Source: Candidatus Beckwithbacteria bacterium GW2011_GWC1_49_16 (GTDB lineage Bacteria > Patescibacteriota > Microgenomatia > UBA1400 > CG1-02-47-37). Taken from it: a DNA stretch of 64,000 nucleotides. The translations under genes and the position numbers were made by a program. The stretch lies in the NCBI GenBank assembly GCA_001029675.1, contig CP011210.1, positions 777,280 to 841,279 on the forward strand. The letters run 5' to 3'. Positions 20,405-39,781 of this stretch are shown here, in pieces. How positions within the stretch are numbered: the first letter of the stretch is position 1; every line of letters begins with the position of its first letter. The notes below the pieces were generated by a model that was not told where the DNA came from, ran no database searches, and saw nothing but the letters and a program-made list of their open reading frames with translations.

Positions 20405-21498
20405 AACCCGTACCAGGAAAATTCCTGCTTCATAGTTTTTAAACCGTGGTTTAGCAAATCTCTCATGAATTTGTCTTCTTTAAAAGTGAGCTTTTTCTTT
20501 CTCAAGGTGATTTTGGAAACAAGATAACGCAGCCTTAAAAGATGAAACTTAGCCTCGTATTCTTTTGGTAGTGGCGAAATTTGCTGATAACCCCGCTTAA
20601 GATGTTCCAGGCGTTCCAAAGGAAAAAACAGGCTCCAGCAAGCAAAGTCGGCCATGGGGTCGCCGGAGTGGCATTCATCCCAATCTAAAACGGCGGTAAC
20701 TCGGCCATTTTGGGCCAGTTGGTTCCAGTCGGCCAGATCATTCTGGATTAAGACCGACCGCTTATAATCGAGTAAGGTTTTGTTAGCGGAGAAAATTTTG
20801 GAAATTTTTTTTCTTTGGGAGGGCGTGATAACTTGAGTCTTTTGTAAATAGTTGAGATTTTTAGTCAGAGCGGCGAGGACATGATCAGACCATTGAGGCT
20901 GAATGCCGACTAGTTGTTTTTTGGCTTTGGCGAGGCGATTGTCAAAAAAGCCAAAATTCTTGGTGTGGATGGTGTGAATTTTAGCCAGTAGTTTACCGGT
21001 ATCTTCGATTAACTTTTGATCCAGTTTTTTGGCAATCGGCCACATGTCTTTCATGTTTCTGCCCGGCAAGTACTCGGTCAACATATAGTCAAAATTAAAC
21101 TTGTCTCTTGTGTCGTCGATAAAGTAAGTTTTGTAGGCAGGCACTCCGACCTCTCTGGCTTTTTTGGCGGCGAGACTTTCGGCCCAAAAGTAGCCGTTTT
21201 TAACTTCCGGTGGGTGGCCGCGGAAAATTACCAAAGTGCCGTCGGCAAGCTTGGCCTTGATGACAACATTGACCGAACCAAAAGGAATCATCTCATAGAG
21301 CTTGACCGCCCTGGCTTTGCTTTTGGCTTTGCCAGCCTGAACCATGCCTGACTCTATCGCCTGTCTAGCCAGATCAGAATTAAAGTTTTGGTGCCGATCC
21401 AGAAAGACCTTTTTGGTTTCGGCCTCGTCAAATGGTCGATCTACCTGCCAGTAGAACATGCGGGAACGATCGACAGATTTTCCAAACTTGGCGTTCAT
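20401..21498 (-). CDS. phosphotransferase-family kinase (APH/choline-kinase-like)
   Basis: Catalytic loop [10 protein letters not shown] and DWD motif. Overlaps its neighbours by 4 nt on each side. Confidence 0.55.
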
Positions 21499-24603: not shown

Positions 24604-25023
24604 CTACCCCAAGCGTTCAATTAGTTCTTTGGGGTTAACTATTCTTGGTCTTTTGACTCGAGTTTTTAAACTAAGAATGTGCTTTTTATCCAAGCTAACC
24701 AAGTAATCCGCCTTAATATCTTGACAAGAGGCGAGAAGATGGGCGTCTCCGGGATCTGCCACTGTCTTTGATAATTTGTCAACAGACTTTAAGCCAGGGG
24801 CTGGATAAATTTTATTAAAAGCCAATAAACAATTTCTGAAATGCCGGCGAGAAACTTTAATCTTTGAGAGGTGGCGTCTGATTTCATCGAGAACAATTTC
24901 GCTAATGACGCCGTTAATTCTTCCTTGACTACCCCAGTTGATGAGTTTAGCCGAGCCACCAGATTTTGATCTTAAAGCGGCCAAAACTACCGAAGCGTTA
25001 AAAAAGACAACCGGCACTGACAT
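24604..25023 (-). CDS. PIN-domain-like protein (putative VapC-type toxin, first Asp replaced by Asn)
   Basis: PIN-like acidic positions (EIVLDE, DPGD, SLD), but the N-terminal motif reads FFNASVV. Start overlaps the stop of the upstream AbrB gene. Confidence 0.4.
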   Translation of the reverse strand: MSVPVVFFNASVVLAALRSKSGGSAKLINWGSQGRINGVISEIVLDEIRRHLSKIKVSRRHFRNCLLAFNKIYPAPGLKSVDKLSKTVADPGDAHLLASCQDIKADYLVSLDKKHILSLKTRVKRPRIVNPKELIERLG

Positions 25024-25274
25024 TATTTTTTAGATTTTGTGCCTTTTTGCAGCTGGTCGTCAAAATCAAAAAAGTCTTTTAATTCCTCGTCGGTGTAACT
25101 TCTGACAGGATAAGGCAAAGTTCTAACCGGTTCCAGATAAATTCTACCCTTGTCTTCCTTAATCCTAATTAAACCATTTTCCTCAAGGCCATATTTAGCT
25201 CTAATCGCCTTGGGAACAGTCATGAGCCCTTTAGGCTGGAGTTTGACGATAGTCTCCAATGATTGCTTTTGCAT
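25023..25274 (-). CDS. AbrB/SpoVT-family antitoxin-like DNA-binding protein
   Basis: Swapped-hairpin motif LQPKGLMTVPKAIRAKYGL. 83 aa. Confidence 0.6.
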   Translation of the reverse strand: MQKQSLETIVKLQPKGLMTVPKAIRAKYGLEENGLIRIKEDKGRIYLEPVRTLPYPVRSYTDEELKDFFDFDDQLQKGTKSKK

Positions 25275-25349
25275 ATTTTCTACTATATAGAAATTCTAAC
25301 TTTCTGTCAAGTGTTTTTTCCCATCAACTGTAAGCTACAATATAGACAA

Positions 25350-25805
25350 ATGAATAAAATTCCCTTCACCCAGGCAGGCTTGTCTAAAGTTATCGCCGAA
25401 AGAGATAAGTTCACGGCCGAGCGGCCGGAGGCGGTGGCCCACTTGCAAAAAGCCCGGGAAATGGGCGATCTGTCCGAAAACGGCTATTATAAAGAGTCCC
25501 GGGCCCGTCTATCTTTTATCGACGGCCGGTTGAGGTACCTGGAACGGATCATTAAAGCGGCCGCGGTGGTTGCGCCGGTTGGCGGCGATACCATTGGTTT
25601 TGGCAGCCGGGTGAAGTTAAACGACGGGGTGAAAGAATTTGAATACACTCTGGTCGGTTCGTTTGAGTCCGATCCAACCAAAAAAACCATTTCCGCCCAG
25701 TCTCCTCTGGGCCAAGCCCTGATGGGCAAAAAAGTCGGCGACCAAGTGACGGTAACCACTCCCAAAGGCACGACCGGATATCAAATCCTCAACGTCAGCG
25801 CTTGA
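25350..25805 (+). CDS. greA: transcription elongation factor GreA
   Basis: GreA N-terminal coiled-coil and C-terminal FKBP-like domain. Start taken at MNKIPF (25350), not the track's 25263. Confidence 0.8.
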   Translation: MNKIPFTQAGLSKVIAERDKFTAERPEAVAHLQKAREMGDLSENGYYKESRARLSFIDGRLRYLERIIKAAAVVAPVGGDTIGFGSRVKLNDGVKEFEYTLVGSFESDPTKKTISAQSPLGQALMGKKVGDQVTVTTPKGTTGYQILNVSA

Positions 25806-27591
25806 AGTTTAAATCTTTTTTTCTTAACCGCAAATGATGCGGCGTCACTTCCAAAAGTTCGTCCGGACCGATGAAAGTTAAGTATTGCTCCAGGGACATT
25901 TTTAAGGCCGGGGCGATTTTAATGGTGGCGTCGGAGGTCGAAGCGCGCATATTGGTCAGCTGCTTGCCCTTACAGATATTAAAATACATATCTCCCTGGC
26001 GGTTATTGAGGCCGATAATCATGCCTTGGTAAACTTCTTCTCCGGGACTGACAAACGATGTCGCCCGCTCCTGAAGATGGGCAATGGCGTAGGCCAAAGC
26101 TTTGCCGGGCTCGCTGGCAACGACCGCGCCGCTTCTTTGCCACACCACCGCTTCTTCTTCCGGCTCATAGTCCCAAAAGACTGAGTTGACCACGCTCGCG
26201 CCCGAGGTTTTGGTTAAAAGTTCGCCCCGCAAGCCGATCAGGTTTTTGGTGGAGATTTTATATTCAAAGCGCACTCCGCTTTTGGCGGTCTGCATGTTGA
26301 CCATAGCTGCTTTTCTTTGACCCAGGCTGTTTAAAACCACGCCGTTATATTTTTCCGGCACTTCGAGGTACAGTTTTTCAAACGGCTCTAAAGTCTTTCC
26401 GCCTTCTTTTTTGTAAATCACCTGCGGCTGGGAAACGGAAAACTCGTAGCCTTCGCGGCGCATCGTCTCCACCAAAATCGACAAGTGCAGTTCGCCCCTG
26501 CCGGCGACGACAAAACTGTTACCCGAGGCGTCGGCTTCGATTTTGAGACTGATGTTAGTCTCGATTTCCTTCTTGAGCCTGGTCTGGATTTGTCGCGAAG
26601 TGGTCAACTTACCGTCTTTGGCCACCAAGGGTGAAGTCGATACAGACAGTTCGATTTTTAAAATCGGTTGGGTAATTTCCAACGGCGGCATTGGGTCTAA
26701 ATGCTCCGGGTCGGTCAAGGTGTCACCGATTTTGATTTCGGAAAAACCAGCCAGAGCGACGATCTCGCCCGCCGCCGCCAGGTCAATTGCCTGTTTTCTT
26801 AACCCCTGGAAAGTAAACAGATATTCGACGTTTCCCTGGCCCACCCGCTTATCGTCCCTGACAATGGCCAAACTCTGGCCAACCTTGATGGTGCCCCGGT
26901 TAATCCGGCCGATGGCGTAGCGGCCTTTATGGGCATCGTAATCCAGGGTAGTAATCTGCATCTGCGCCGGACCGCGTCGGTCACCCGGAGGCGCGGGGAT
27001 AGTTTTAATAATCGTTTCAAACAGCAGAGACAAATCTTTATCGTCTTTTAAATCCACGTTTTTGCCGACCACGCCGCGACGGCCGACGGCGTACAAAACC
27101 GGAAAATCGAGCTGATCCGAGTGCTCGACCAAGTCCAAAAACAGATCACTGATTTCGTCTAAGACTTTAGCGGCTCTTTGATCTTTGCGGTCGACTTTGT
27201 TGATGATCACGATCGGCTTTAACTTAAGTTTTAAGGCCAAAGACAAAACATAGCGGGTTTGCGACAACACCCCTTCGGCGGCATCTACCAAAAGCAAACA
27301 GCCCTCGGCCATGTTTAAAACCCGTTCGACTTCGCCGGAAAAATCGGCGTGGCCGGGGGTATCGATGATGTTAATTTTGTAACCTTGCCAGCTGATGGCC
27401 GTGTTTTTGGCCAAGATGGTCACACCCCGTTCGCGCTCCAACTCGGTGGAGTCGAGAATCATGTCCTGCTGCATTTGCGCCTCGTGGGCGGCAAAGGCGT
27501 GGGATTGCTTTAACAAATGATCAACCAGGGTAGTTTTGCCGTGGTCAACATGGGCGATGATGGCGATGTTTCTGATTTTGGCTTGATCCAT
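25795..27591 (-). CDS. typA: translational GTPase TypA/BipA
   Basis: G1 [18 protein letters not shown]. Length about 600 aa. Confidence 0.9.
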
Positions 27592-27662
27592 AAAGAGATG
27601 TTTGCATCAAAACTTGTATTATACTCCGGTTTGTTATAATTAGCTGACTTTATAGATTATTC

Positions 27663-27733
27663 TGCCGGGTGGTGAAATGGCATCACTGCTGGCTCTGAAC
27701 CAGCCATTCTAGGTTCGAATCCTAGCCCGGCAA
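27663..27733 (+). tRNA. tRNA-Gln (anticodon CTG)
   Basis: Cloverleaf folded by hand: acceptor TGCCGGG/CCCGGCA, D-stem GTGA/TCAC, anticodon loop CTCTGAA, T-arm CTAGG-TTCGAAT-CCTAG. CCA not encoded. Promoter-like TTGTAT...TATAAT upstream. Confidence 0.8.
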
Positions 27734-27745
27734 CCCCTCGACTAT

Positions 27746-28006
27746 ATGGCTTATTTTGTATATATCTTGCGAACCTCCGCAAACACTCTTTATATCGGCC
27801 AGACAAATAATTTGACAAAACGGCTTAAAGAGCATAAAGAAAAATCTAACAGGTCGGCAAGATATATCAGGTATTTTTCTTCTTTTGAACTGGTTTATAA
27901 AGAATCGCATCCTACCCGCGTCGAGGCAATGAAGAGAGAATGGCAACTGAAAAAATGGCCTCGAGCTAAAAAAGAAGCGTTGGTAAAGAAGAAGCTAAAA
28001 GCCTAG
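27746..28006 (+). CDS. GIY-YIG nuclease family protein (YhbQ/UPF0213-like)
   Basis: YFVYILRTSANTLYIGQTNNLTKRLKEH aligns to YhbQ. Starts 13 nt after the tRNA. AT-rich. Confidence 0.65.
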   Translation: MAYFVYILRTSANTLYIGQTNNLTKRLKEHKEKSNRSARYIRYFSSFELVYKESHPTRVEAMKREWQLKKWPRAKKEALVKKKLKA

Positions 28007-28024
28007 CTTTTCTTTGACGAAGAT
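27988..28024. repeat. left copy of direct repeat (degenerate 3' fragment of the LUD gene)
   Basis: Core 27999-28024 aagcctagcttttctttgacgaagat vs 33017-33042 aaccctagtttttctttgacgaagat. Minus-strand reading gives IFVKEKLGF*, the same as the true LUD C-terminus. Confidence 0.75.
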
Positions 28025-28041
28025 GGGGTCCACGTTGGAGA

Positions 28042-31000
28042 CTAACCGAAGAAATCATCTCGTGGCGATGAATTTGCTCCTATCTTATCTATAAATTCCC
28101 TTATTAGGTTAATTCTTGTGCTCTTTCTACCGCGCTGCTTATTGAGATAAAACAGGTTACGAATTTGCACAAACCACTCCCAAGGAACTTCTAGTTTATT
28201 CGATACAAAAACGTTCAACAGCCTCTGAATATAGCTGGCGTCTGATTTTCTGCCTGACCAAGCCTGCTTGATAAATTCTTTCCCTAATTCTCTCCGAACT
28301 TGCTGGCGAATTTTTTGGATTTTCTCACTGTTTAAGATACTTTGATTATGTTCGCTAACCAAACTAATGAATCCGTCGAGAAACCCAACATAGTCTCCCT
28401 GGCGAAAAGTGTTAAAAACCTCAACTTCCTGTTTAGAAAACGAAAAGTCCGTAGGTAAATCGATTGCCCCCAAGGTTCCATCTTGGCTAATAATAAAGTT
28501 GCCGGGGTGAGGATCTTGAGGGAAGATATACTGCCCAACATCCACACCTACAGGCGTTTCAAAAAAAGAATCTACAAATCCTAAAACTATATGCAACGCC
28601 TTAAGGGTTGTTTTAATATCCTCGGATAAGTTATCCTGATTTTCTAGCCACTGATTAAAATTTTTAGAATCGAATGGTACTTTGTTTTTGGCTAAATAAG
28701 AAGATACTTGACGATTTTGCAGATACCGATTAAGCGTCGAACCGGCTAAATATTCTTCTACTCTAATATGATTGTCTGGGGTGGCAAATAGCGGCTTGGC
28801 GGTGATAATTGGCTTGTCGATTTTTTCAGATATAGCTTTAATCGCCTGGCGCAAGATAGCGCCCCATTGGGGTTTGTTATCTTTCAGATCTGCCTTGCTC
28901 CAATGTCGCGCCACTCCCAACACAATTTGGGCCAGCTGGGCGTGTTTTTTGGTCTGCTCGTTTCCGTGTTTCTCGGCGTACCGGAGGGCCGCTATGGTGC
29001 TATCGTAGGAAATATCAACAAAGGCAGCAGCGTTTGCCGTATACATTTTTAAGGCAGCGGTTTTGACTCCTAGCTTCTTGATTCCTTTGGGGGTTAAAGA
29101 GACTTTGTAGGCCGAAGCAAGGCTACCTCCTCCTAAAAATTCGTCTATTGTATCTAACATTTCTCCGACAAATAGGCTTAGAGAAGTTTCCGCATCACCA
29201 GATTTATCATCCTCTACCTCCTTATGGAGATTGAGCCAAAGCTTAAATTCATCGGTGGGCTGCATCCGATCAAAGGCGTTGCTTAACCTTTTGGCTAGCT
29301 TTGGCTCGAAATCGTATACCAGCTGGGCTATTTGCAGAGAGCGCACGAATAAACTACCCATTGATTCGATACCTTGAATAAAAGACTCTGTCCGGGGGGA
29401 AAGGCCGGATTGCTCGGCCGCCTCAACCTCCTGATATTTTTGAGTCAAGTTAAAATTACTGGTATATGCTTCAAGCCATTGATGCAGGCGCCTCAAGTGA
29501 CTAGTGGATGCTTGATATAATTTTGATAGAGCCTCCAGGCCAGTTTTTCCTCTTAAAATACTGCCTATTTCTACTATGTTATCCCTTGATTCGCTGAATA
29601 AATTTGGTAAATAGCTGTATTCTGGCTTTCCTGAAAAAGCGCTGCCCCTTTTGTAAAATTCTTTCTTAATTCTGGTGTAGTTAATTGCCTGCAAATCCAG
29701 CCCGGAAAAAAGCAACGGTCCTAAAAGTTGGGATAAACCTAACCCTACCAATGAAGGTTTACCCTCGATAATTAATCCTTTGGCAACTTGCTTGACGAAG
29801 TCGTCTTCAATATTGAATGACTTGACTACGAGATCGGCCAACCACTGTCTCTTCTCGGTAGTAGCAAGCAAACCATCTGAATCAAGAAGCAAGCGCATCA
29901 TCAGACCCTTTTTAGCGCCCTCTGATAATCCTTGGAGTCCTTGAATTACATCTTTGACTGTGCGGAAACGATCACGTTCTCTAAAAGGATCGATAATTAC
30001 TTTTCTGAGCTGTCGGTCAAACTGGATTCCGCTGCTTGGCTTGGTGTCGTCGGTTTTAATCTTGGCTATAAAAGTACCCAACCAGGTTTTAGCCAAATCG
30101 GTGGTATATTTGAGCTTTGATAGCGGATCGTCTGCGATAGTACCCACCACCCACTGCTTATCCTTAAAGAGCGATACCACTAGGTCTCCGATGGCCAAAG
30201 CATCTAACTTCCAGGAATTTTCGTCTCCGCGGAGCACGGCCATTCGCTCCAAGCCGATTTGATCAAAAAAGTACTTGGCGTCGTCATAATGCTTCACCTG
30301 TTTCATCAGCACTAAAAGATCGCTATAGGAAAATTTATGGTAATTATCTAGAAAATAATCCATTCGGCTTCTTATTTTTTCTGGGTTTGACTCGGCGGAG
30401 ATAATATAGGCCAGACGCAGGTCATGAATTTTTCGACTTAGATCAGGGCTGGCGTCCGTCATGTCAATCCCACCACCAATACCACTGACGATATTCTCAA
30501 ATGCTTGAATTGCCGCTGGTAGGACTTCGGAGTCAATATCCTGATGCAAAAAGTCAATAAACTTTCCTTCAAAGAAGGGGTAGAAAATAAGTCCGGCAAG
30601 ATTTGATGAAAATATTTTTTTGGAACGATAGTGAGAGTGCATGCCGAGGTAATGAGCGTGATCGATGCGTTCGTTGTAGTCAGCCAAAGCTTGGTCTAAG
30701 GCGACAAAGGATTCAATTTGATAGGTGTGCTCCAGTTTCTTCTGAAAAGAAAGGTGAAGTGGGGAAGTAGCCAGTTTTTCTCCCATATATAAAGTTTGAT
30801 CACCAAACCAATAAGAAAAGTTAAGTACATGCCAGATTTGATCGTTAAGTGAAAGTCGGTCAAAGTCACTGCCGTAATGCTTTTCCATATAGTGTAACGA
30901 ATCGACCATTACCTGCCTTTTCTCTTCATATGCTTTAAAGGACGGATATGTATCTACTTCTAAATTTGCAATAAATGCTTCAAGGCGCATTTTCAATGAA

Positions 31001-32988
31001 CTGGGAAGCACTTTGCCCTTTTCATCAAGACTAAATAAAGTGGACGTCTCACGCTCTGTTTCAATTTGAGGGTCAAAATCAAGTCCGGTAAAATCGGCTG
31101 ATCTTACTTGCTCTCGAAGATAAGTAATGATGGGCGCATAGTGTTTTCTAATCTCAGTTGCAAGCGGGTGAGATTCTGCTAACTGAATGTTGCTATACAG
31201 CAATCTTCTTAAATTACTGAATTTTCTATATAAAACGTGTACTTCTTTCTCAGAGAAAATACTGTTGAGTATTCTAGATACCTGTTCTAAGCTAAAAAAA
31301 GCTGGCTCGGACTCAAGCTGCTCTTTATAGAGATTAACTCCGAATACTTCTAGAAAAATAGGCTCCAGCTGGTCTTTGGTTAGTTGGGTGACTCGGTCAG
31401 AATCAATGTCGCCTTTTTTGTTTCTAAAGATTTGATGAGTGCCAAGGGCGTTTTCGAGAAGCAACCATGTATCAGATGCGGGGCTATACCCTGTTTTGGC
31501 GATTTTTTGAAGTAGTTGTCTTAACTCCTTTTGGTCAACTCGTTGTGTTTTTGGATCAAATAATCTAGCCGCAATATATGTAGAAATAATGGGGTCTACA
31601 TGCCACCAGTATTTGCCGAATTGCTCGTCTTTATCCTGTCTTGCGAATTCAACATACGCCTCAATAATCTCGAGAAAAGTGTTTTCTTTTATAGCTACAC
31701 CCTGGTTAATCAAGAAAGTTATCTGGCCCTCGCAGGCAGCGTCAATGTCAGTCTGTCGGGCATACAAACCATCCCAGTCGCCTGGCCAATTGTCTCGGGC
31801 ATAGACTCCGAAAATTCTATAGTTCATTCCTCTCCATTGTTTTGGATCAATTGTGTGTCCGTGTTTAAGAATCTTGAGGTAGTCTTGGTAAGTATGGTTG
31901 GAAAAGGCATGCTGGCGCCATCTCTCATTCCCCCACCACATCGTCAAAAGAAGGCTGTCTTGGTCGAGAGGTAATAAGTCTACGTCTGTAGTACGTTTTC
32001 GAAGAAATTCAGTAAGCGCTTGTTGAAAAGCCTCACTATCTTTAAGATCCCCCCTGCTAAAACACCCGTTATCCAGTAGTTGGCATAAATCTTGAGAATG
32101 GAGCTTATCTAGTAATTCAGCCGCGTTTCCTTCAACCAGTCCCTCGGGCCACATTTCGGCAATTTCGCGGTTTGTTGGCTTAATTTCTTGTTTATAGAAA
32201 CTAATGGTTTCGCCGTCGGGTAAAGCTACCTTGTCCAAGGGAATAATGTCGGCGCTACTGAATTTCCGATTGATAAATTGGTGCTCGATGAGAGGAAGGC
32301 TGGCTCGCATCAGGGGTGATTGATGGCCTAAGTCGGTTCTTTGGTTTAAGCTTTCTTTAGCTTGGCGTTCAAAAAAATCATGGGCGACTAAAGTATTTAT
32401 TCCGACTTTATCAAGCAACCGGGAAACCTCGGCATCCGCCCCAAGCTCATGGACCCACTCTGTCGAGATGCTTTCTCGAGAAACATAGGTACCATTGATT
32501 AAATGGGCAACTTCGTGGGCAATAATACCCAAAGCGGCACTAAAAGAACCGGAGCGGTTTATCAAGGATTGAGAAAGAACTATGGTTCCGTCAGGAAGAA
32601 TAAATCCTTTTTCGGTTAACCCCCGGTTAAGAATAACTACCTGAACGTCGCCTTTGTAAACCTCACCTTGCAACATTTTCTTGGCATATTGACCTAATAT
32701 CCTGGTTCTTTCAGAACCGCTTTCTGTTTCATGGGTAACAGCTAAATATTTTTGGGTTTGATTAGTGAAATCGTTGTTTGCTTTAATTTCTTGTTCTGTT
32801 AACGTTCTGTCCGGGTAAGCGTCTGAAAGTATAAATAATGGTTTTAAAGTTATATCGGCTTCCCCCCGAAATTCCCCAGGCATGTCTGACACGGAATAAA
32901 GTGGTTCTGGCTTAGCCTCAACCTTGCGACCACCAAATAAATCTCCAAGATCCAATCCTGCCGTCTTTAGAGTAGCTACTTCCCCCAT
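28042..32988 (-). CDS. giant multidomain protein: N-terminal HExxH zincin-like domain, long helical middle, C-terminal ABC1/UbiB-like atypical kinase domain
   Basis: IIAHEVAHL...E zincin motif near aa 170. C-terminal ABC1 motifs (LASAYKV, GVKTAALKM, DPHPGNFII, AIDL). AT-rich relative to flanks. Confidence 0.6.
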   Translation of the reverse strand: MGEVATLKTAGLDLGDLFGGRKVEAKPEPLYSVSDMPGEFRGEADITLKPLFILSDAYPDRTLTEQEIKANNDFTNQTQKYLAVTHETESGSERTRILGQYAKKMLQGEVYKGDVQVVILNRGLTEKGFILPDGTIVLSQSLINRSGSFSAALGIIAHEVAHLINGTYVSRESISTEWVHELGADAEVSRLLDKVGINTLVAHDFFERQAKESLNQRTDLGHQSPLMRASLPLIEHQFINRKFSSADIIPLDKVALPDGETISFYKQEIKPTNREIAEMWPEGLVEGNAAELLDKLHSQDLCQLLDNGCFSRGDLKDSEAFQQALTEFLRKRTTDVDLLPLDQDSLLLTMWWGNERWRQHAFSNHTYQDYLKILKHGHTIDPKQWRGMNYRIFGVYARDNWPGDWDGLYARQTDIDAACEGQITFLINQGVAIKENTFLEIIEAYVEFARQDKDEQFGKYWWHVDPIISTYIAARLFDPKTQRVDQKELRQLLQKIAKTGYSPASDTWLLLENALGTHQIFRNKKGDIDSDRVTQLTKDQLEPIFLEVFGVNLYKEQLESEPAFFSLEQVSRILNSIFSEKEVHVLYRKFSNLRRLLYSNIQLAESHPLATEIRKHYAPIITYLREQVRSADFTGLDFDPQIETERETSTLFSLDEKGKVLPSSLKMRLEAFIANLEVDTYPSFKAYEEKRQVMVDSLHYMEKHYGSDFDRLSLNDQIWHVLNFSYWFGDQTLYMGEKLATSPLHLSFQKKLEHTYQIESFVALDQALADYNERIDHAHYLGMHSHYRSKKIFSSNLAGLIFYPFFEGKFIDFLHQDIDSEVLPAAIQAFENIVSGIGGGIDMTDASPDLSRKIHDLRLAYIISAESNPEKIRSRMDYFLDNYHKFSYSDLLVLMKQVKHYDDAKYFFDQIGLERMAVLRGDENSWKLDALAIGDLVVSLFKDKQWVVGTIADDPLSKLKYTTDLAKTWLGTFIAKIKTDDTKPSSGIQFDRQLRKVIIDPFRERDRFRTVKDVIQGLQGLSEGAKKGLMMRLLLDSDGLLATTEKRQWLADLVVKSFNIEDDFVKQVAKGLIIEGKPSLVGLGLSQLLGPLLFSGLDLQAINYTRIKKEFYKRGSAFSGKPEYSYLPNLFSESRDNIVEIGSILRGKTGLEALSKLYQASTSHLRRLHQWLEAYTSNFNLTQKYQEVEAAEQSGLSPRTESFIQGIESMGSLFVRSLQIAQLVYDFEPKLAKRLSNAFDRMQPTDEFKLWLNLHKEVEDDKSGDAETSLSLFVGEMLDTIDEFLGGGSLASAYKVSLTPKGIKKLGVKTAALKMYTANAAAFVDISYDSTIAALRYAEKHGNEQTKKHAQLAQIVLGVARHWSKADLKDNKPQWGAILRQAIKAISEKIDKPIITAKPLFATPDNHIRVEEYLAGSTLNRYLQNRQVSSYLAKNKVPFDSKNFNQWLENQDNLSEDIKTTLKALHIVLGFVDSFFETPVGVDVGQYIFPQDPHPGNFIISQDGTLGAIDLPTDFSFSKQEVEVFNTFRQGDYVGFLDGFISLVSEHNQSILNSEKIQKIRQQVRRELGKEFIKQAWSGRKSDASYIQRLLNVFVSNKLEVPWEWFVQIRNLFYLNKQRGRKSTRINLIREFIDKIGANSSPRDDFFG

Positions 32989-33003
32989 GCTTACATATTA
33001 CTA

Positions 33004-33042
33004 GAAGAAAACCTAAAACCCTAGTTTTTCTTTGACGAAGAT
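33004..33042. repeat. right copy of direct repeat (intact 3' end of LUD gene)
   Basis: Matches 27988-28024, with 2 mismatches across the 26-nt core. Confidence 0.75.
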
Positions 33043-33636
33043 TAAAGTGAGGCGGCCGGGCGTGGTTTCCTGATTGAAAATCAACAGCTTGCTGACGTTT
33101 GATTTTTCCATGCCGTAGGCTTTTTGGACCCTTTTTGATTCCAGGGGCAAAATATAGTCGTAAATCCTTTTGACGCCTTGCTCTTGGTCGGCTACCAGTT
33201 TTTGGGTGCCCACCACCCAAATGACGTAGGTTGAGGAATAAGCATAGGCGCCGAGCTGGCTGCCGGTGTTGGAGGCGACCAAGACCTTGCCGTCAGCGGT
33301 GACGGCGTGGACGCTGCCGACGGCGTACTCGGGAGCCGCACCGAGTTTTTGCATTTCGAGTCCCTGGGTAACTCGATCCATCTGATTTAATTTGTTTCTG
33401 ACCGAGTTGAACTTGCCCGGCTCGTTTAAAGCCTTATCCAGCCCCAAAGTTTCCAAGGTAGTCGAGGACATGTTCATCACCTCTGCCCCGGCAGGCACCA
33501 ACTCTAAAACCTTGGCCTTAGCGGCCTCTGCGTTGTCCACCACCAAGGCATTGATACCGTTTTGCTTGAGGGCGGCAATGGTTTTTTGAATGGTGGTCTC
33601 GTCGGCGAGTTGATCCCAAGTGGGCATACTACCCAC
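33013..33636 (-). CDS. LUD-domain protein (LutC/YkgG, DUF162-like)
   Basis: Resembles lactate-utilisation LutC-like proteins. C-terminus is IFVKEKLGF. Confidence 0.5.
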   Translation of the reverse strand: MGSMPTWDQLADETTIQKTIAALKQNGINALVVDNAEAAKAKVLELVPAGAEVMNMSSTTLETLGLDKALNEPGKFNSVRNKLNQMDRVTQGLEMQKLGAAPEYAVGSVHAVTADGKVLVASNTGSQLGAYAYSSTYVIWVVGTQKLVADQEQGVKRIYDYILPLESKRVQKAYGMEKSNVSKLLIFNQETTPGRLTLIFVKEKLGF

Positions 33637-33648
33637 CAGTATACCAAA

Positions 33649-34503
33649 TCAAAGCGACCCGACGCAAGCGTTGAAGGCGTTAACCTGGTTGTTGTAATCC
33701 TCTACTTGACCCTTGGTTTCAACGATTAGTTGGTTATAAACCTCAACTAGGCCGTTATACTCATCGACTTTTTGCTCGTATTCGGGGCCGCGCTTGGGCT
33801 GGTAAGCTTCCAGTTCCTGCTTTCTTTGAGCCAGTTCTTGACTCAACTGATCAAGGCGCACCTTGTTGTCTTCGATGGTGGCGGCGAGTCCCCCGTCCGG
33901 CCCGGGGCAGGCCGAGAGCGGCACGCCGAAGTGCTGGACGGCCAGCCAAGTAGTTCTGCCTTCAAAAGTGCCGCGAATGACGCCGACGCCGATCTCGCGG
34001 TAACTTCCTTTAAGAATGTTTTCCCTGTGGCCGGGGCTGTCCATCCAGGCCTCGACCAGAGTTTCGTCGTCTAAGAAATTTCCCAGAGCTAAATTTTCGC
34101 CGATCTCGATAAAGCGGTAACCCTGATCGGCGGCTAAATCGGCGACGTCAACGCCTTCGGGTGAATCGTGGGCAAAATATTGACCCTTAAGCATATCGGC
34201 CGCCTTGGCGGCGGCGGAGCGGTTGAGTAAACCGCTCTCGGCCAAAGGTGGCAAGTTGTGGATGGTTCTTTGCCGGTTGGTAAAAGCAATGACGCCCTCG
34301 ACGGTGAGGTGGGCCTGGGGCGAGTCTTGCTCCGAGCGAAGCGGCGGGGGCAGGTTGACTTTCTTTTCAATCGCCTGCTCGAGCCGAGGGAGACTAGCAA
34401 AAAACTGGCGGTAGAGATCTGTGAGGGTGTCCTGGAAAAACCACAGCCCCAAACCGAAGGCAAACAATAAAAGTAGTGGTTTAAAAAACCGATTAGAATT
34501 CAA
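33649..34503 (-). CDS. CAP/SCP (PR-1-like) domain secreted protein with C-terminal coiled coil
   Basis: N-terminal TM/signal. CAP motifs AHDSPEG, GENLALGN, WMDSPGHRENIL. Confidence 0.65.
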   Translation of the reverse strand: MNSNRFFKPLLLLFAFGLGLWFFQDTLTDLYRQFFASLPRLEQAIEKKVNLPPPLRSEQDSPQAHLTVEGVIAFTNRQRTIHNLPPLAESGLLNRSAAAKAADMLKGQYFAHDSPEGVDVADLAADQGYRFIEIGENLALGNFLDDETLVEAWMDSPGHRENILKGSYREIGVGVIRGTFEGRTTWLAVQHFGVPLSACPGPDGGLAATIEDNKVRLDQLSQELAQRKQELEAYQPKRGPEYEQKVDEYNGLVEVYNQLIVETKGQVEDYNNQVNAFNACVGSL

Positions 34504-34957
34504 GGTCGCCGCAGGCGGTGTAGACGCTGGCTTCGGTAGCGGATTTGTGGACGTTTATAGCCAGTGGCATCTCTGCTTCCAGCTGGGCCAAAGTGACTTC
34601 GAGGGTGGTTGCGGACGCGCCGTCAACCACGTTGGTTAAAGGATAAGAAACGGCCCCGACCTCGGGGCAAGAGCCGACGTGAATGTGGGCGGGCTGGGAG
34701 ACGCCGACGCTAAAACCCGTCAAGGCTAAGGTAACGGTGACTGTACCGTCTGTTTCAACCAGGGTGGCGGTGCCCGACTCGCCGGAGTCGTTTAGTTCGG
34801 CTAAAGTGAGGCTGATTTGATTTTCTGCCATCATGGCTTCGTCTTCGGTGACGGTATCGGCTGTATCTGTAGGAGCGTAGGCTGGTTGGCGGCTGGAGAA
34901 GTACCACAGGCCGCCGACTAGAAGAATGACGAGGCCGATAAGAAGGTTTTTATTCAT
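34493..34957 (-). CDS. CHRD-domain-like secreted protein
   Basis: N-terminal TM/signal. PAHIHVGSCPEVGAVSYPL resembles the CHRD AHIHxGxxGxxGPV motif. Confidence 0.4.
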   Translation of the reverse strand: MNKNLLIGLVILLVGGLWYFSSRQPAYAPTDTADTVTEDEAMMAENQISLTLAELNDSGESGTATLVETDGTVTVTLALTGFSVGVSQPAHIHVGSCPEVGAVSYPLTNVVDGASATTLEVTLAQLEAEMPLAINVHKSATEASVYTACGDLEF

Positions 34958-35021
34958 GGTTAATTGTAGGCAGAAAAAAGTTTCCGTGTCAAGGTTTATT
35001 TTGCGGGTATAATATAGTTTA

Positions 35022-35459
35022 ATGATTTACCTTGGGGCGGACAAACAAGGATTTGAGGCGATAAAAATAGCCATGGAGTGGTTGGATAACCGAGGCTTTA
35101 AATATGAAAATTTGGGAGTAAAAAGCAAAGACCAAGACATGAAACTTGAAAATTTGCTGCCGCCGATAGCGGAGAAAGTCAGGGCAGACACAAAAAACTT
35201 AGGCATTGTTTCCTGCGGCACGGGCGTGGGGGTCGAGGTGGGGATAAATAAATTCAGCGGCATCAGAGCTTGTCTGGCCGACGACCCGGAAGTGACCGAG
35301 TGGTCGAAGATTTACGACAACTGCAACGTTTTGTGTCTTATCGGCTGGCGGCCGGACAGAGGAAAAATTGAAAAGATTTTGGTGAGTTGGTTTGCCGCCG
35401 GTTATGATGGCGATTCCGACCGATTAAAAATGATGCAGGAGTTTGATAAGTGGAGATGA
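35022..35459 (+). CDS. rpiB: ribose-5-phosphate isomerase B (RpiB/LacAB family)
   Basis: GIVSCGTGVGVEVGINKFSGIRA motif. 145 aa. Confidence 0.8.
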   Translation: MIYLGADKQGFEAIKIAMEWLDNRGFKYENLGVKSKDQDMKLENLLPPIAEKVRADTKNLGIVSCGTGVGVEVGINKFSGIRACLADDPEVTEWSKIYDNCNVLCLIGWRPDRGKIEKILVSWFAAGYDGDSDRLKMMQEFDKWR

Positions 35460-35463
35460 GCAT

Positions 35464-36168
35464 ATGTACGAAGAAAAAACAAACCAAAATCTTCAAAATA
35501 TTGGCCATAAAATAGGTCACTTACCCGAGGTTCAAACCCCTCTTAGAGTAGCTCAAGAAACGCCTTGGAAGGAACTTGCCAGTACTTTTGTGTCTTACTT
35601 AAAGGTGATCAAACGACTGGCTACCCTATCCGAAAAAGACATCGATGTTATTAGAAAGGTTAATCGTCAGCTAAGTGGCCACGGCGGTGCGGAATCTTTT
35701 GCCGAAAGCCTCGGCAAAGAAAATATAGGTACTTTGGTCGCACTTGCCGCCCAAACAGTTGATCCAAATTCAGATCATTATCAAGATGCGCTAAACGAAC
35801 TAACGATAATGATGGAAAACGCGCAGGCTATAAAAAAATCAGGTAAAACTCCTGTAGATGGGGATCCTTTATCTGATGCGGCAATCTGGGGCTATACTCA
35901 AGTAACTGACCCAGCAGCTCAACGACATAACATTATCTGCCACTGGCTCGAACGGCATATTTCCCATGATTTGAGGCCAAAGGGGGTAAAAATCGCTCAA
36001 AAGAAAGATTGGTTATTAACAGCCATGGCTGATGTTGTAGCTTTAGATGGGACAAGAAAAACCTTAGCAAACCCAGAAATTTTTGAGATTTGGACAACAG
36101 CTAAGCCAAAAGGGCTTGGCTGGATTGGCCAGGAAAAAGTGACTGCGTATCGCGAGGCGCTGAAATGA
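35464..36168 (+). CDS. hypothetical protein
   Basis: No motif. AT-rich. Start taken at MYEEKT, just after the rpiB stop. Confidence 0.35.
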   Translation: MYEEKTNQNLQNIGHKIGHLPEVQTPLRVAQETPWKELASTFVSYLKVIKRLATLSEKDIDVIRKVNRQLSGHGGAESFAESLGKENIGTLVALAAQTVDPNSDHYQDALNELTIMMENAQAIKKSGKTPVDGDPLSDAAIWGYTQVTDPAAQRHNIICHWLERHISHDLRPKGVKIAQKKDWLLTAMADVVALDGTRKTLANPEIFEIWTTAKPKGLGWIGQEKVTAYREALK

Positions 36169-36782
36169 TCCCTAAAAGAATTGCGGCTATTGGGGCGAGT
36201 TACTGCGAGGGCAAGGTTGACCCCGAAGGCGGCGGGTTTGTGGGCAGGCTGCGATCCTGGCATGAGAGCTTTATCCAGGATAATCATGTATTTAACCTAG
36301 GAATCAGCGGCGATACAACCAGCGACATGCTTAAGAGACTAGAAAAAGAAATGAAACCAAGAAAACCGGATTTAATTTTAGTTGTCGGCGGCTTAAACGA
36401 CTTCATCAGGCGAGAAAGCAAAATTGCTAAGCCTGATAACACCGTCGAAGGTTATGAGAAGAATATTAGAGACCTAATCGCTAAAGCCAAAAATTTGGCA
36501 CCAGTGTTGTTTGTTGGCGTTCAACCGGTTGATGAGGCACGGACAGCGCCAGTGAGCTGGGAAAATATTTATTATCTGCTTTCGGACGCTAAAACGGCTA
36601 CCGATATTACTAAAAAAGTGTGCTTAGAAATGAAAGTCCCCTATGTAGATGTTTTTGGTGAGTTTATGAAAATTGACTATAAAAAATATCTGGCTGACGG
36701 CTTACATCCAAATAGTCAAGGCCACCAAAGAATTTTCGAGTTGGTAAAAGATAAACTGATTGGGGTCTATGGGAAAAATTAA
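36165..36782 (+). CDS. SGNH/GDSL hydrolase family protein
   Basis: Block I GASY(S-like), block III GGLND, block V DGLHPN. ATGA overlap with the previous gene. Confidence 0.65.
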   Translation: MIPKRIAAIGASYCEGKVDPEGGGFVGRLRSWHESFIQDNHVFNLGISGDTTSDMLKRLEKEMKPRKPDLILVVGGLNDFIRRESKIAKPDNTVEGYEKNIRDLIAKAKNLAPVLFVGVQPVDEARTAPVSWENIYYLLSDAKTATDITKKVCLEMKVPYVDVFGEFMKIDYKKYLADGLHPNSQGHQRIFELVKDKLIGVYGKN

Positions 36783-37917
36783 GTGGTTTATTTTGGGGGT
36801 GATCATTTTGGCGGGGGCGTGGGGGTGGAAAAAGTACGGCTATTTGTGGCAGAGTGCCAAGAATTGGCCGAGGGCAACGCAGGTGACGACCGAGCCGGTG
36901 GAGCTGACGCCGACGGCAGAAAGCGATCAGGAACTGGAACACATCAAGCTGGCCGAGGGGGCAACCATCACCTATTTTGCTAAAGACGTACCCGGGGCGC
37001 GGTCTTTGGCGCGGGGTGGGGGCGGCGTAGTTTATGTCGGCACCAGGGGCGAAGGCGTGGTTTACGCTCTGGAGGACAAAGACAACGACGGCCGGGCGGA
37101 AAGAAGAGTGGTGGTAGCCAACGGCTTAAACACCCCTAACGGCGTGGCTTACCAAGACGGCGATTTGTACGTGGCCGAAATCAGCCGGGTGATTAAATTT
37201 GCCAATATCGACCAAAGGTATGATAAAAAGCCTGACTTTGAGGTGGTTTTCGATGATTTACCAAGTGAAACCCACCACGGCTGGCGCTACATCGGCTTTG
37301 GCCCTGACGGCAAACTTTATGTAGCCATTGGTGCGCCGTGCAACATCTGTGATCCGGGTGACCCGTTTGCCAGCCTTACAAGGATAAGCCCTGAAGGTGG
37401 CGGTTTGGAGACCGTGGCCCGGGGGATCAGAAACTCGGTCGGCTTTGACTGGGACCCTAATACGGGTAAGCTCTGGTTTACCGACAACGGCCGGGATCTA
37501 ATGGGTGATGACCTGCCGCCGGATGAGCTCAACCGGCTGGATAATGTCGGCGAGCACTTCGGCTATCCGTATTGCCACGGCCAAGGGGTGGTTGATCCTC
37601 AATTTGGCCAAGGCGGATGCGATCAATATAAGCCCCCGGTGGTGGAACTGGGGCCGCACGTAGCGGCATTGGGGATGAAATTTGTAAACGGCAAGATTTA
37701 TATCCCCGAGCACGGCTCGTGGAACCGAAGCGTGCCGATCGGCTACCGGATTACTACTGTCGATCCTCAAAGCGGCCTTTACCAGGTCTTTGCCGAGGGT
37801 TGGCTTGAGGCTGACGGGACGGCGACGGGACGGCCGGTGGATATTTTGGTGATGGATGATAGGTCGATTTTGGTGAGCGATGATAAGGCTGGGGCGGTGT
37901 ACCGGATCAGTTTTTAG
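36760..37917 (+). CDS. PQQ-dependent sugar (sorbosone/glucose) dehydrogenase-like beta-propeller
   Basis: N-terminal TM. YliI-like motifs (NTPNGVAYQDGDLYVAE, LWFTDNGRD). GC-rich. Confidence 0.6.
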   Translation: MGSMGKIKWFILGVIILAGAWGWKKYGYLWQSAKNWPRATQVTTEPVELTPTAESDQELEHIKLAEGATITYFAKDVPGARSLARGGGGVVYVGTRGEGVVYALEDKDNDGRAERRVVVANGLNTPNGVAYQDGDLYVAEISRVIKFANIDQRYDKKPDFEVVFDDLPSETHHGWRYIGFGPDGKLYVAIGAPCNICDPGDPFASLTRISPEGGGLETVARGIRNSVGFDWDPNTGKLWFTDNGRDLMGDDLPPDELNRLDNVGEHFGYPYCHGQGVVDPQFGQGGCDQYKPPVVELGPHVAALGMKFVNGKIYIPEHGSWNRSVPIGYRITTVDPQSGLYQVFAEGWLEADGTATGRPVDILVMDDRSILVSDDKAGAVYRISF

Positions 37918-37934
37918 GTGGTATGATAAGTTAA

Positions 37935-39050
37935 ATGGAGGAAAAACGGTCCTGGCCATCAATCAACGCCGTTCTGGCGGCGGCAGTGGTTTTACTGTTT
38001 TTGTACCTGTTTGTCACGGGCGAGACGACGCGGTTTTACGCCAGTTTGCTGTTTGGGCTTTACGCGCTTTTAGGCCAAATGTGGTGGGCGGTGGTGGGCT
38101 TGGGGGTGTTTCAGACGATATTAATGGTACCGTTCAGGGTGATAAATCTGGCTAATGCCCGGCACGTTAAAGAGTTTAAGGAAAAGTTGAAGCAGGCGGG
38201 AGTGGAAAATAATCAACAATTTGTCATTAGGCAGAGGGTTCGCGGCGGCGACGTCAATTTACTTTTTTATTTAGTCAACTTTTTTATCCAGACGATTTCT
38301 TACGTTACCATCGGTTGGTTGTTTCTGACCGATTTCTACAGCGTTAAACTTGACCCGGGACGGCTTTATGACTTTATCCCCTATCCAAATTACCCGATCC
38401 AAGGGACGATTTATAATCTGCCCTACTTGAGGTTTGCCGAAACGGTGGACTTGGGGATCGGTTGGGTGTTGGTTGCCTGGGCGGGCGCAATCATTTACAA
38501 AATCTTGGTGCAAAAGTTTGCCGAGTTTTACCGTAAAAGAAAACAAACCACGGGTGAGATCGATGAGGGCCGGGTGGCAGACTCAATCAAGCGCTTTTTG
38601 CGGGGTTCGAGCGGAGCCTTGACGGTGATTATGGTCGGCTCCTGGTTTTTGCTGCGAAACTGGCCCAAGAAAATTGCCTGGGCGCTTTTTAGCGGCGACG
38701 TCAGCCTGGTAAACTACCGCTTTAACCTGATTACCGCTTTGATGACGGCGTTTATCATCATCTGGCTTAACTTGCCCAAAATCTATAAAAAGGTGGACCT
38801 GGCCCGAGAGCAAGGCATTGCCGAGGCAGTAATCAGAAAAACCCAAAACGAGCTTTTCCGCGAAACCCTAAGAAGCGCGCTGGTGTTTGGCTTGGGCGCC
38901 TTTTTTATCACCCGGCAGATCCCCAGCGCTTTTGAGTTGTCGATTTTTACTTTTGAAGTGATTTCGCTTATCTCGCCCTTGACGCTGGACCGGCTGATTT
39001 TGTCTAAAAGAGTTCAGGTTTTGACCGGAGACTTGGAAGAGAAAGGATAA
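37935..39050 (+). CDS. polytopic membrane protein, possibly YidC/Oxa1-like insertase
   Basis: TM1 followed by a Lys-rich amphipathic segment, then RGGDVNLLFYLVNFFIQ, reminiscent of the YidC core. Weak. Confidence 0.3.
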   Translation: MEEKRSWPSINAVLAAAVVLLFLYLFVTGETTRFYASLLFGLYALLGQMWWAVVGLGVFQTILMVPFRVINLANARHVKEFKEKLKQAGVENNQQFVIRQRVRGGDVNLLFYLVNFFIQTISYVTIGWLFLTDFYSVKLDPGRLYDFIPYPNYPIQGTIYNLPYLRFAETVDLGIGWVLVAWAGAIIYKILVQKFAEFYRKRKQTTGEIDEGRVADSIKRFLRGSSGALTVIMVGSWFLLRNWPKKIAWALFSGDVSLVNYRFNLITALMTAFIIIWLNLPKIYKKVDLAREQGIAEAVIRKTQNELFRETLRSALVFGLGAFFITRQIPSAFELSIFTFEVISLISPLTLDRLILSKRVQVLTGDLEEKG

Positions 39051-39781
39051 GCGACCGGGCCTAAAGGAATTTGGTCTTGGGGGTCGTCGACGAAGAGCAA
39101 GACCACCCGGCCTTGTTTGGGGCCGGGGTAGAAACCTAAAGCATGCATTACCTCGGGGGAGCCGCCAAACTGCTTGCCGGTGAATACGGCCGGGCCGGCG
39201 TCGCCGATGACGGCAACCACGGCTTGACCGGTGGCGGGGTTGACAACTAAAACCTTGCGGTGGCGATACCAATCCCTTAAAGCCCGTAAATCTTGGTTCC
39301 AGTTGGGCAGGTAAAAAGTTTGGACGGCGACGTAGTAGCGTTCGGCGACGGGGTCGTCAAAATAACCCCAGGCGCCGCGGTTAGCGGTCAAGCCAACTTC
39401 GGGAAAAAGGTGGCCGGCTATGGTATCGCCGGGAAAACGGGGCAGATGTTGTTCTAAGCCGATGCGGCCGAGTTGGTGGTTTAAACGGTGGCCGTCAAGC
39501 TCCACCGCGGTGGCTAGCCCCAAAGTGCCGGAAATGGCTTGGAGCAGCTTTTTCTCTTCCTTTTGAGTTAAAACCCGAGAAAAGGGAGGCAAGGCGTGGT
39601 CGAGTTTGTCGGCCAGCAGGGCTTGGAGCTCTAAGGGTGTCACCAGGCCGAGTTTTAAGCGGTATGAAGCTGATCTTTGGGGCAAGGGCTGGGTCAAGAA
39701 GGTAAAAATACCCCAAAGCGCCAAGACTAACGCGGCCAAACTAAAGGGCTTCATGGGCAGCCTGAAGACGGCGGCTGACAA
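39014..39781 (-). CDS. hypothetical secreted protein (possible RlpA-like double-psi beta-barrel)
   Basis: Signal peptide. VLVVNPATGQAVVAVIGDAGP...SPEVMHALG resembles the DPBB pattern. Confidence 0.3.
   Translation of the reverse strand: MSAAVFRLPMKPFSLAALVLALWGIFTFLTQPLPQRSASYRLKLGLVTPLELQALLADKLDHALPPFSRVLTQKEEKKLLQAISGTLGLATAVELDGHRLNHQLGRIGLEQHLPRFPGDTIAGHLFPEVGLTANRGAWGYFDDPVAERYYVAVQTFYLPNWNQDLRALRDWYRHRKVLVVNPATGQAVVAVIGDAGPAVFTGKQFGGSPEVMHALGFYPGPKQGRVVLLFVDDPQDQIPLGPVAYPFSSKSPVKT

Follow-up and report, generated by a model that had tools for sequence, protein, structure and literature searches.

A predicted M48 metalloprotease joined to a divergent UbiB-like kinase domain, encoded by an apparently inserted gene in a Candidatus Beckwithbacteria genome

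The window analysed here, a stretch of 64,000 nucleotides from Candidatus Beckwithbacteria bacterium GW2011_GWC1_49_16 (contig CP011210.1, positions 777,280 to 841,279), contains on its minus strand a gene for a protein of 1648 residues. On one side it is preceded by a tRNA-Gln and a standalone GIY-YIG nuclease gene, on the other it adjoins a gene for a LUD-domain protein (Table 1). An initial annotation, made from the letters of the sequence, had named this gene and these neighbours; all of them were confirmed from the list of open reading frames (ORFs), with ARAGORN and with Pfam, and the motifs that it quoted (HEVAH, DPHPGN, Asp1510 and the upstream Lys1314) were located by translation. The protein corresponds to AKM79603.1 from Candidatus Beckwithbacteria, which lies on a sequence of 1,049,888 bp, is deposited as 'hypothetical protein UX85_C0001G0237' and bears the UniRef name 'Peptidase M48 domain-containing protein'; the same locus is also present on a 260-kb Rifle groundwater contig. 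From the family profile, the structure models and the relatives, the giant protein is a predicted soluble molecule in three parts, namely an M48 zinc metalloprotease, an all-alpha scaffold of ~950 residues and a UbiB/ABC1-type kinase-like domain with an N-terminal helical extension.

The family profile identifies the N-terminal domain. It matches the M48 peptidase 3c37_A in the PDB (E 3.3e-5), with both HExxH and ExxAD aligned, and BepA and HtpX follow as weaker matches. Pfam M48 (PF01435) is found in 30/30 family members at E<0.01, with a best value of 3.9e-14; the 1648-residue protein by itself reaches 20.1 bits where the cut-off is 20.3, compared with 34-40 bits for its homologues. Searched as a single sequence, it has no match in PHROGs or NCBIfam, none by phmmer in the PDB and, in Pfam, only this sub-threshold similarity to M48. 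In a conservation alignment of 30 full-length members, which are ~20% identical to the giant protein, His158, Glu159 and His162 of the HEVAH motif are invariant, as are Glu181 and Asp185 of the downstream ELGAD motif.

The C-terminal domain displays a kinase-like fold with the UbiB-specific N-terminal (KxGQ) helical domain in an AlphaFold2 (AF2) model of residues 1190-1648, built from 13 sequences (predicted local distance difference test, pLDDT, 82.5; predicted template modelling score, pTM, 0.81). In this model the GGGSL loop lies between β1 and β2, Lys1314 in β3, and DPHPGN forms the catalytic loop, with Asp1510 past the next strand. Arg1216 and Gln1219 mark the start of the helical extension, and the RSLQ sequence at this site was equated with KxGQ by comparison of motif and position, with no residue-level superposition. 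Family members carry RSLQ, KRCLQ, VKALQ or VYGFQ here; the Gln is invariant and the Gly is not conserved. The catalytic residues of UbiB proteins are retained, with Lys1314 and Asp1492 at least 90% conserved and Pro1493, Gly1496, Asn1497 and Asp1510 invariant. In COQ8 the nucleotide loop is Ala-rich in place of Gly-rich; here Gly1288 and Ser1289 are invariant within a Gly-rich GGGSL, so that the Ala-rich loop typical of the UbiB family is missing. The remaining invariant positions in this part of the alignment are Gln1219, Arg1234, Asp1240 and Glu1411, and Arg1216 is at least 90% conserved. Because the active-site residues at both ends of the protein are invariant or nearly so, both catalytic centres are under strong constraint.

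Since a profile of the middle and C-terminal regions gave no significant match among PDB sequences, the kinase assignment needed structure prediction. The 1648-residue protein has no match to Pfam ABC1 (PF03109) at E<=1. ABC1 is detected in 13 of the 30 family members at E<0.01 (for example 29.5 bits in P0003), and hhalign joins the C-terminal domain over its full length to P0148 (probability 99.9, E 6e-32), which scores 61.8 bits on Pfam ABC1. By these comparisons the domain is a divergent branch of the UbiB/ABC1 superfamily and not a canonical member. The order of zincin, helical middle and ABC1/UbiB-type kinase given in the initial annotation is thus borne out by the family profile, the structure model and the relatives, the matches to 3c37_A and P0148 providing the two similarities that it had assumed. 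Among more distant matches, this divergent UbiB-like domain is built into different architectures: P0142 (3306 residues) has in addition a C-terminal HATPase_c (GHKL) domain, P0140 (2344 residues, Omnitrophota) has no Pfam match, and P0148 (690 residues) shows a clear match to ABC1.

The region between the two domains has no sequence match in Pfam, PDB, PADLOC or PHROG. An AF2 model of residues 255-1194 comprises ~45 helices (mean pLDDT 70, pTM 0.46), and Foldseek returned generic HEAT/ARM/TPR-like solenoids (karyopherins, HUWE1, Ski3) with template modelling scores <0.2; a fold-family assignment was dropped, as only such generic solenoids were obtained. Conservation within this region peaks at residues 850-1100. 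A crude hydropathy scan of the 1648-residue protein found no 19-residue window above 1.6 on the Kyte-Doolittle scale and no N-terminal hydrophobic segment, and the same kind of scan detected no signal peptide, lipobox or transmembrane helix in 4/4 family members checked.

An exhaustive HMMER profile search with residues 471-1648, clustered at 50% identity, returned 415 clusters at E<=1e-3 and 161 at E<=1e-30. Most of the matches are 1500-1700 residues long and align to the profile from end to end; the architecture of the giant protein is shared by a family of at least 415 clusters. Its named members come from Microgenomates-group bacteria of the Candidate Phyla Radiation (CPR) and are deposited as 'hypothetical' or 'M48 family metalloprotease'. 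Across the family the N-termini ahead of the M48 domain are variable and poorly conserved. A literature search found no description of a fusion of M48 with ABC1. Two known enzyme families are joined here in an architecture that we did not find described, within a family that is large, deposited, uncharacterised and under-annotated. The initial annotation had not recognised the combination as a described one, in agreement with the literature search; the protein is, however, not singular.

Two side observations concern the family. Word-indexed searching found 4 relatives with the single sequence, the three diverged ones being ~23% identical, and 3 with a 30-sequence profile; set against the 415 HMMER clusters, index-based search badly underestimates family size for long, fast-evolving proteins of this kind. 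One member, P0088 (1787 residues), contains three tandem 39-nt (13-codon) units near its 5' end (L025 10190-10345).

The giant gene is bounded by two copies of a direct repeat that are 30/33 identical and lie 5018 nt apart. By chance ~5e-8 such pairs would be expected in 7 kb, and the 17-nt identical core occurs at these two sites only within the window. On the minus strand both copies encode IFVKEKLGF followed by a stop, the C-terminus that is conserved in all LUD orthologues examined. At the inner edges the similarity ends abruptly, leaving 17 and 21 nt to either end of the ORF. The imperfect repeats that the initial annotation had described as copying the 3' end of LUD are therefore real, and the left copy covers in addition the end of the GIY-YIG gene. 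No integrase, recombinase or transposase is present among the called genes from ~8 kb upstream to ~3 kb downstream, as the initial annotation had also stated for the integrase, and the insert consists of one ORF. The tRNA-Gln that it had linked to the island is indeed adjacent. The repeat, however, is found 257 nt downstream of it, past the GIY-YIG gene and between that gene and LUD, and the tRNA was ruled out as the attachment site because the window has no second copy of its 3' end; with no piece of it duplicated, the tRNA-Gln is a bystander.

In the simplest reading of this footprint, GIY-YIG and LUD originally ran towards each other and overlapped at their 3' ends, and a near-bare ORF segment of 4985 nt would have inserted precisely at the overlap. 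As ~33 nt were duplicated on insertion, the 3' ends of both genes stayed intact. Three mechanisms are possible: a target-site duplication that has since drifted, an att-like crossover catalysed in trans, or a short-homology crossover with DNA carrying a LUD-like 3' end, the last being plausible because the IFVKEKLGF peptide is so conserved. The GIY-YIG gene, which is also low in G+C content (GC 0.383; 0.40 at third codon positions, GC3), may be a separate and earlier mobile arrival or may have helped to make the break at which the insertion took place.

The left repeat copy also contains, at 27992-28015, the hairpin AAGCTA-aaagcc-TAGCTT followed by TTTCTTT, a terminator-like element on the plus strand right after the GIY-YIG stop codon. 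In the right copy the stem is partly lost (AACCTA...TAGTTT); both were read by eye, and the terminator scan did not call the hairpin of the left copy.

Table 1. Positions in the 64,000-nt window of the giant gene, its domains and motifs, and the surrounding features.
Feature	Position	Strand	Basis or remark
Giant gene, M48 / alpha-solenoid / UbiB-like, 1648 residues	28042..32988	-	ORF list, translation
M48-type zinc metalloprotease domain, residues ~80-250 (predicted)	32239..32751	-	Family profile against PDB, Pfam in relatives
HEVAH zinc-binding/catalytic motif, residues 158-162 (H158, E159, H162)	32503..32517	-	Translation, alignment
ELGAD motif, residues 181-185 (E181 third zinc ligand, D185)	32434..32448	-	Translation, alignment
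All-alpha middle, solenoid-like scaffold, residues ~255-1189 (predicted)	29422..32226	-	AF2 model
UbiB/ABC1-type atypical kinase-like domain with N-terminal KxGQ-like extension, residues ~1190-1620 (predicted)	28129..29421	-	
RSLQ, counterpart of UbiB KxGQ (R1216, Q1219)	29332..29343	-	Translation, alignment, model position
GGGSL putative nucleotide-binding loop, residues 1286-1290	29119..29133	-	Alignment; β1-β2 hairpin loop in model
K1314, β3 Lys	29047..29049	-	>=90% conserved; strand 121-127 of model
DPHPGN catalytic loop, residues 1492-1497 (D1492, N1497)	28498..28515	-	Alignment, translation
D1510, metal-binding Asp, equivalent to the DFG Asp	28459..28461	-	Invariant; translation
Left direct-repeat copy, 33 nt: last 5 GIY-YIG codons and stop (+), orphan LUD 3' end IFVKEKLGF* (-)	27992..28024		
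Right direct-repeat copy, 33 nt: working 3' end of LUD gene	33010..33042		
Inferred inserted segment, 4985 nt: ORF with 17-nt and 21-nt flanks	28025..33009		
tRNA-Gln(CTG)	27663..27735	+	ARAGORN; neighbour, not attachment site
Standalone GIY-YIG nuclease gene, 86 residues	27746..28006	+	Pfam PF01541, E 3.4e-18; outside the repeat-bounded insert
LUD-domain gene, directly upstream of the giant gene	33013..33636	-	Pfam PF02589, E 2e-18
Promoter-like site TTGACA-18-TACAAT (11/12), upstream of CHRD	34963..34992	-	Consensus scan, pattern match only
Other low-GC3 stretches of the window	5792-6958, 9981-10511, 11443-12831, 35464-36782, 44620-45246, 48328-49017, 63518-64000		

The composition of the gene points in the same direction as the repeats. 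Its GC content is 0.424 compared with 0.496 in the rest of the window, which agrees with the AT-richness reported in the initial annotation, and its GC3 of 0.414 contrasts with a median of 0.618 for the 56 other genes (robust z -4.2; 6th lowest of 57). GC3 stays at 0.38-0.46 throughout the gene, and the difference lies at synonymous positions. Homologous loci in four other genomes place this value in context. In three low-GC genomes (L001, L023 and L025) the family gene has the GC3 of its neighbours (0.22-0.33), whereas it is an outlier in two mid-GC genomes, namely those of the window and of L024, the latter with the closest relative (37% identity). Such a distribution, native in low-GC genomes and deviating in mid-GC ones, is more readily explained by transfer from low-GC lineages than by a codon bias of the gene itself. 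The neighbourhoods of the homologues are unrelated to one another and of housekeeping type (DnaJ/TopA/purine genes; transketolase/transaldolase; thioredoxin/YchF/S6-SSB-S18), and no flanking repeats were found around the homologues in the four genomes. A phage or plasmid as vehicle was discarded, since searches of phage and plasmid collections and a scan of IMG/VR with one peptide pattern gave no relatives.

About nine further genes of the window have a GC3 of 0.35-0.44 where 0.58-0.69 is typical, among them genes for an M23 peptidase, a GNAT acetyltransferase, a Fic/DOC protein, a GDSL lipase and an IS200-like Y1 transposase, and two genes with no Pfam match; they suggest repeated uptake of AT-rich DNA by this CPR genome of ~1 Mb.

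Twenty-four contigs with the identical LUD protein were read, and each carries the 1648-residue gene directly downstream; the insertion is thus fixed in the sampled population. Among 5.8 billion sequences, LUD protein identity drops from 100% straight to 71-72%, which means that no close relative is available. Downstream of the 71-72% orthologues lie a gene for a 183-residue hypothetical protein in one genome, and an acyltransferase gene followed by GreA in another. The uninterrupted GIY-YIG/LUD junction, sought as an exact DNA pattern, had no match in JGI metagenomes; loci collected around LUD from GTDB genomes and JGI metagenomes reached at most 66% identity and had no synteny; and a short-flank look-up revealed no polymorphic empty site among the 24 contigs. 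A weak ancestral microsynteny is visible: gltX, LUD (71% identical) and GreA lie within 8 kb in L032 (1992-10140), and GreA, LUD and gltX within 16 kb in the window (25263-41150), with different intervening genes and GreA inverted.

We consider horizontal insertion well supported by the foreign GC3, the 33-nt duplication at both ends and the absence of the gene after the nearest LUD orthologues, and the initial annotation was right to propose horizontal acquisition; the donor would be a lineage of lower GC. That the gene is instead an old resident, its AT-richness a gene-specific codon bias and the repeat a local duplication that untangled overlapping gene ends, seems unlikely to us. In favour of this view, the AT content of the family gene exceeds that of its flanks, slightly to strongly, in 5/5 contexts, all contigs read carry it, no integrase accompanies it, and the 3/33 differences between the repeat copies indicate that the event was not very recent. 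On the other hand, its GC3 equals that of the neighbours in the three low-GC genomes and deviates only in mid-GC ones, as transfer would predict, and without an arrival of the gene at that point it is difficult to account for a duplication that encloses it so closely, to 17 and 21 nt. The other low-GC3 genes document uptake of AT-rich DNA by the genome, and no copy of the gene follows the nearest LUD orthologues.

On the minus strand the gene order is CHRD-CAP-LUD-giant gene, with gaps of 12-24 nt, of which the one between LUD and the giant gene measures 24 nt. A scan of the minus strand found no terminator-like site between these two genes, and a consensus scan no promoter-like site directly upstream of the giant gene that is comparable to the one ahead of CHRD. 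From this arrangement LUD and the giant gene probably form one transcription unit, in which the insert, having landed at the tail of the CHRD-CAP-LUD string, would ride on its transcript and promoter. A check for Shine-Dalgarno sequences was uninformative, since such motifs are uncommon genome-wide (12/53 genes). Two further features of the window lie near the insert. A toxin-antitoxin pair encoding a PIN-domain protein and a MazE-like antitoxin is located at 24604-25274, between ThiI and GreA and ~3 kb from the insert. At 20401-21498 lies a gene for an APH/fructosamine-kinase-family phosphotransferase (Pfam APH E 3.5e-19; GC3 0.525, somewhat low), a second kinase-like gene nearby that is unrelated to the giant gene.

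Two intact enzyme domains whose fusion is kept, at an unvarying length, throughout a very deep family presumably work together. We propose that the giant protein is a cytoplasmic, possibly membrane-peripheral, nucleotide-gated metalloprotease. Its UbiB-like domain would bind and hydrolyse ATP and, by way of the scaffold, control substrate access to the M48 site or activation of that site; the solenoid would serve as a substrate platform or as a transducer. Gating by nucleotide is favoured because characterised UbiB proteins are ligand- or lipid-stimulated ATPases and not trans protein kinases, and in them the Gln of KxGQ positions a candidate water nucleophile (10.1101/149823). Since the CPR host is very probably without quinones, the protein would more likely serve protein or membrane quality control than the synthesis of coenzyme Q. 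To our knowledge, CPR bacteria have no quinone synthesis.

Whether the C-terminal domain would act as such an ATPase gate or as a true kinase on proteins or small molecules, for instance in autophosphorylation or on substrates of the protease, is where the retained residues can be read in two ways. We regard the kinase as the less likely of the two, and yet as a possibility to be reckoned with: the canonical phosphotransfer residues Lys1314, Asp1492, Asn1497 and Asp1510 are all kept, the GGGSL loop resembles that of conventional kinases, and a plant ABC1K is reported to be a Mn2+-dependent protein kinase (PMC8956952). The N-terminal extension specific to UbiB and the invariant Gln speak for the ATPase gate, as in COQ8 they are tied to ATPase over trans-kinase activity. 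In addition, no conserved Ser/Thr-rich acceptor segment turned up, though no search aimed at one was made.

The apparent mobility of the gene and its layout could also suggest a single-gene anti-phage or abortive-infection system, in which infection would be sensed by the kinase-like domain or by the scaffold and the protease then released against targets of the cell or the phage. A large standalone gene of foreign composition, found at variable locations with no conserved neighbours, would suit such a role, and so would the PIN/MazE-like pair and the GIY-YIG nuclease in the same patch; a layout of sensor, scaffold and effector is moreover common among defence proteins in general. We nevertheless hold this to be very unlikely. 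No PADLOC model matches the 1648-residue protein or two of three homologues, the third, P0004, having a weak match to Csm2 (E 0.011), and no match was found in phage and plasmid collections or, with one peptide pattern, in the viral one. In low-GC genomes native composition and housekeeping neighbours suggest a stable resident function, and length and architecture remain uniform over ~20% identity, unlike in fast-shuffling defence modules.

The host-interaction or effector role suggested in the initial annotation finds no support in these data. It would have the CPR episymbiont deliver or display the giant protein so as to manipulate envelope proteins or lipids of its host. CPR bacteria are generally thought to be episymbionts, large proteins are often implicated in host interaction, and the gene looks horizontally acquired and accessory; furthermore, the upstream CAP and CHRD proteins appear from their translations to have N-terminal hydrophobic segments. 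The giant protein, however, has none of the export or membrane signals sought by hydropathy in the four members, the N-termini in the family are poorly conserved, and the ATP need of UbiB-type domains argues for an intracellular site. Its homologues lie beside housekeeping genes (DnaJ, TopA, purine synthesis, transketolase, ribosomal proteins) and not beside secretion genes. Together with the lack of PADLOC, phage, plasmid and viral matches, these observations make an exported effector highly improbable.

We therefore prefer, at a probability of roughly 0.55, the joint explanation of a three-part protein that would act as a nucleotide-gated protease and was inserted from a low-GC lineage. Several points weigh against it. 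Taken alone, the 1648-residue protein misses both Pfam gathering thresholds, M48 and ABC1, and the two domain calls hold through the family profile, the structure model and the relatives and not through the single sequence. The global fold of the scaffold is uncertain at its pTM of 0.46, the missing signal peptide is the reading of a hydropathy scan alone, and the coupling of the domains is deduced only from fusion and co-conservation. The degenerate KxGQ (RxLQ) and the Gly-rich loop mean that the chemistry may differ from that of COQ8 and that real phosphotransfer is possible. At the level of DNA, the 3 repeat mismatches do not discriminate a target-site duplication from an att-like or short-homology crossover, the insertion is not accompanied by a mobility gene, and the 24 contigs read provided no empty site, the insertion being fixed in them. 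A wider claim, that the family is a previously unrecognised class of nucleotide-dependent proteases in which a UbiB-type ATPase gates M48 through the ~950-residue solenoid, and that the fusion reveals an ancestral coupling of UbiB/ABC1 with M48, goes further than we would follow and at present appears doubtful.

The UbiB/ABC1 proteins are ancient, widespread and linked to disease in humans, and their molecular job, as ATPase, lipid extractor or kinase, is debated. A family in which a UbiB-like domain is fused to a protease, soluble and in hosts that are very probably without quinones, would be a natural experiment that separates the core activity of the UbiB fold from the biology of coenzyme Q and suggests M48 proteolysis as a functional partner. 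If the coupling is true, it would offer a tractable soluble model for the molecular role of UbiB. Public annotation ('hypothetical', 'M48 family metalloprotease') and word-indexed search overlook both the kinase domain and >400 relatives. The locus itself documents gene gain in a ~1-Mb CPR genome by insertion of a single ORF, integrase-free and with a 33-nt duplication.

Compared with known systems, the insertion resembles integrative islands with att-type repeats at the 3' end of a gene, in that the repeats copy this 3' end, the composition is foreign and the target gene is left intact. It differs from them in having no integrase, excisionase or transposase, in a cargo of one ORF with flanks of 17 and 21 nt, and in a target that is an overlap of protein genes instead of the adjacent tRNA.

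With the M48 metallopeptidases (Geobacter 3c37, BepA, HtpX, Ste24, OMA1 and plant PGM48; PF01435) the giant protein has in common HExxH and the downstream Glu of ExxAD. A conserved β-strand segment ahead of HExxH is shared as well, PDGTIvlSQSL being aligned to AFAIPGGRVYVHTGLL. The core of the giant protein is minimal, with 19 residues from HExxH to the third ligand, where 3c37 has a long insert. Its protease domain sits inside a multidomain chain of 1648 residues and, by the hydropathy scan, has no membrane anchor or signal peptide, whereas the characterised members HtpX, Ste24, OMA1 and BepA are located in or at membranes or the envelope.

The UbiB/ABC1 proteins (human COQ8A/ADCK3, yeast Coq8 and E. 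coli UbiB; PF03109), of which the KxGQ domain is the hallmark (10.1101/2022.03.22.485346), share with the giant protein the Gln at the KxGQ position, the β3 Lys, the DPHxGN loop and the metal-binding Asp. The domain described here is, however, 9-11% identical to COQ8A, has RxLQ in place of KxGQ and GGGS in place of an Ala-rich loop, lacks a transmembrane helix and is fused to a protease and a 950-residue scaffold. Its host, a CPR bacterium, is by general knowledge one that makes no quinones. The mycobacterial ABC1-like ATPases Rv3197 and MSMEG_1954 differ in being standalone proteins of ~400 residues with neither protease nor scaffold.

A parallel is known from plants, in whose plastoglobules members of both enzyme families reside side by side, PGM48 being co-expressed with ABC1K7 and ABC1K3 (10.1101/2021.02.05.430006), and the giant fusion could be read as a Rosetta-stone hint that M48 and UbiB enzymes are functionally linked. 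PGM48 and the ABC1K proteins are individual chains located on a lipid droplet, and we take the parallel as a suggestive lead and not as evidence. In combining a domain that would consume nucleoside triphosphate with a protease in one polypeptide, the giant protein would resemble FtsH and Lon in outline, the former of which is likewise an HExxH zinc protease. These enzymes, however, are built on rings of AAA+ unfoldases, whereas the nucleotide domain of the giant protein is kinase-like and not a member of those families.

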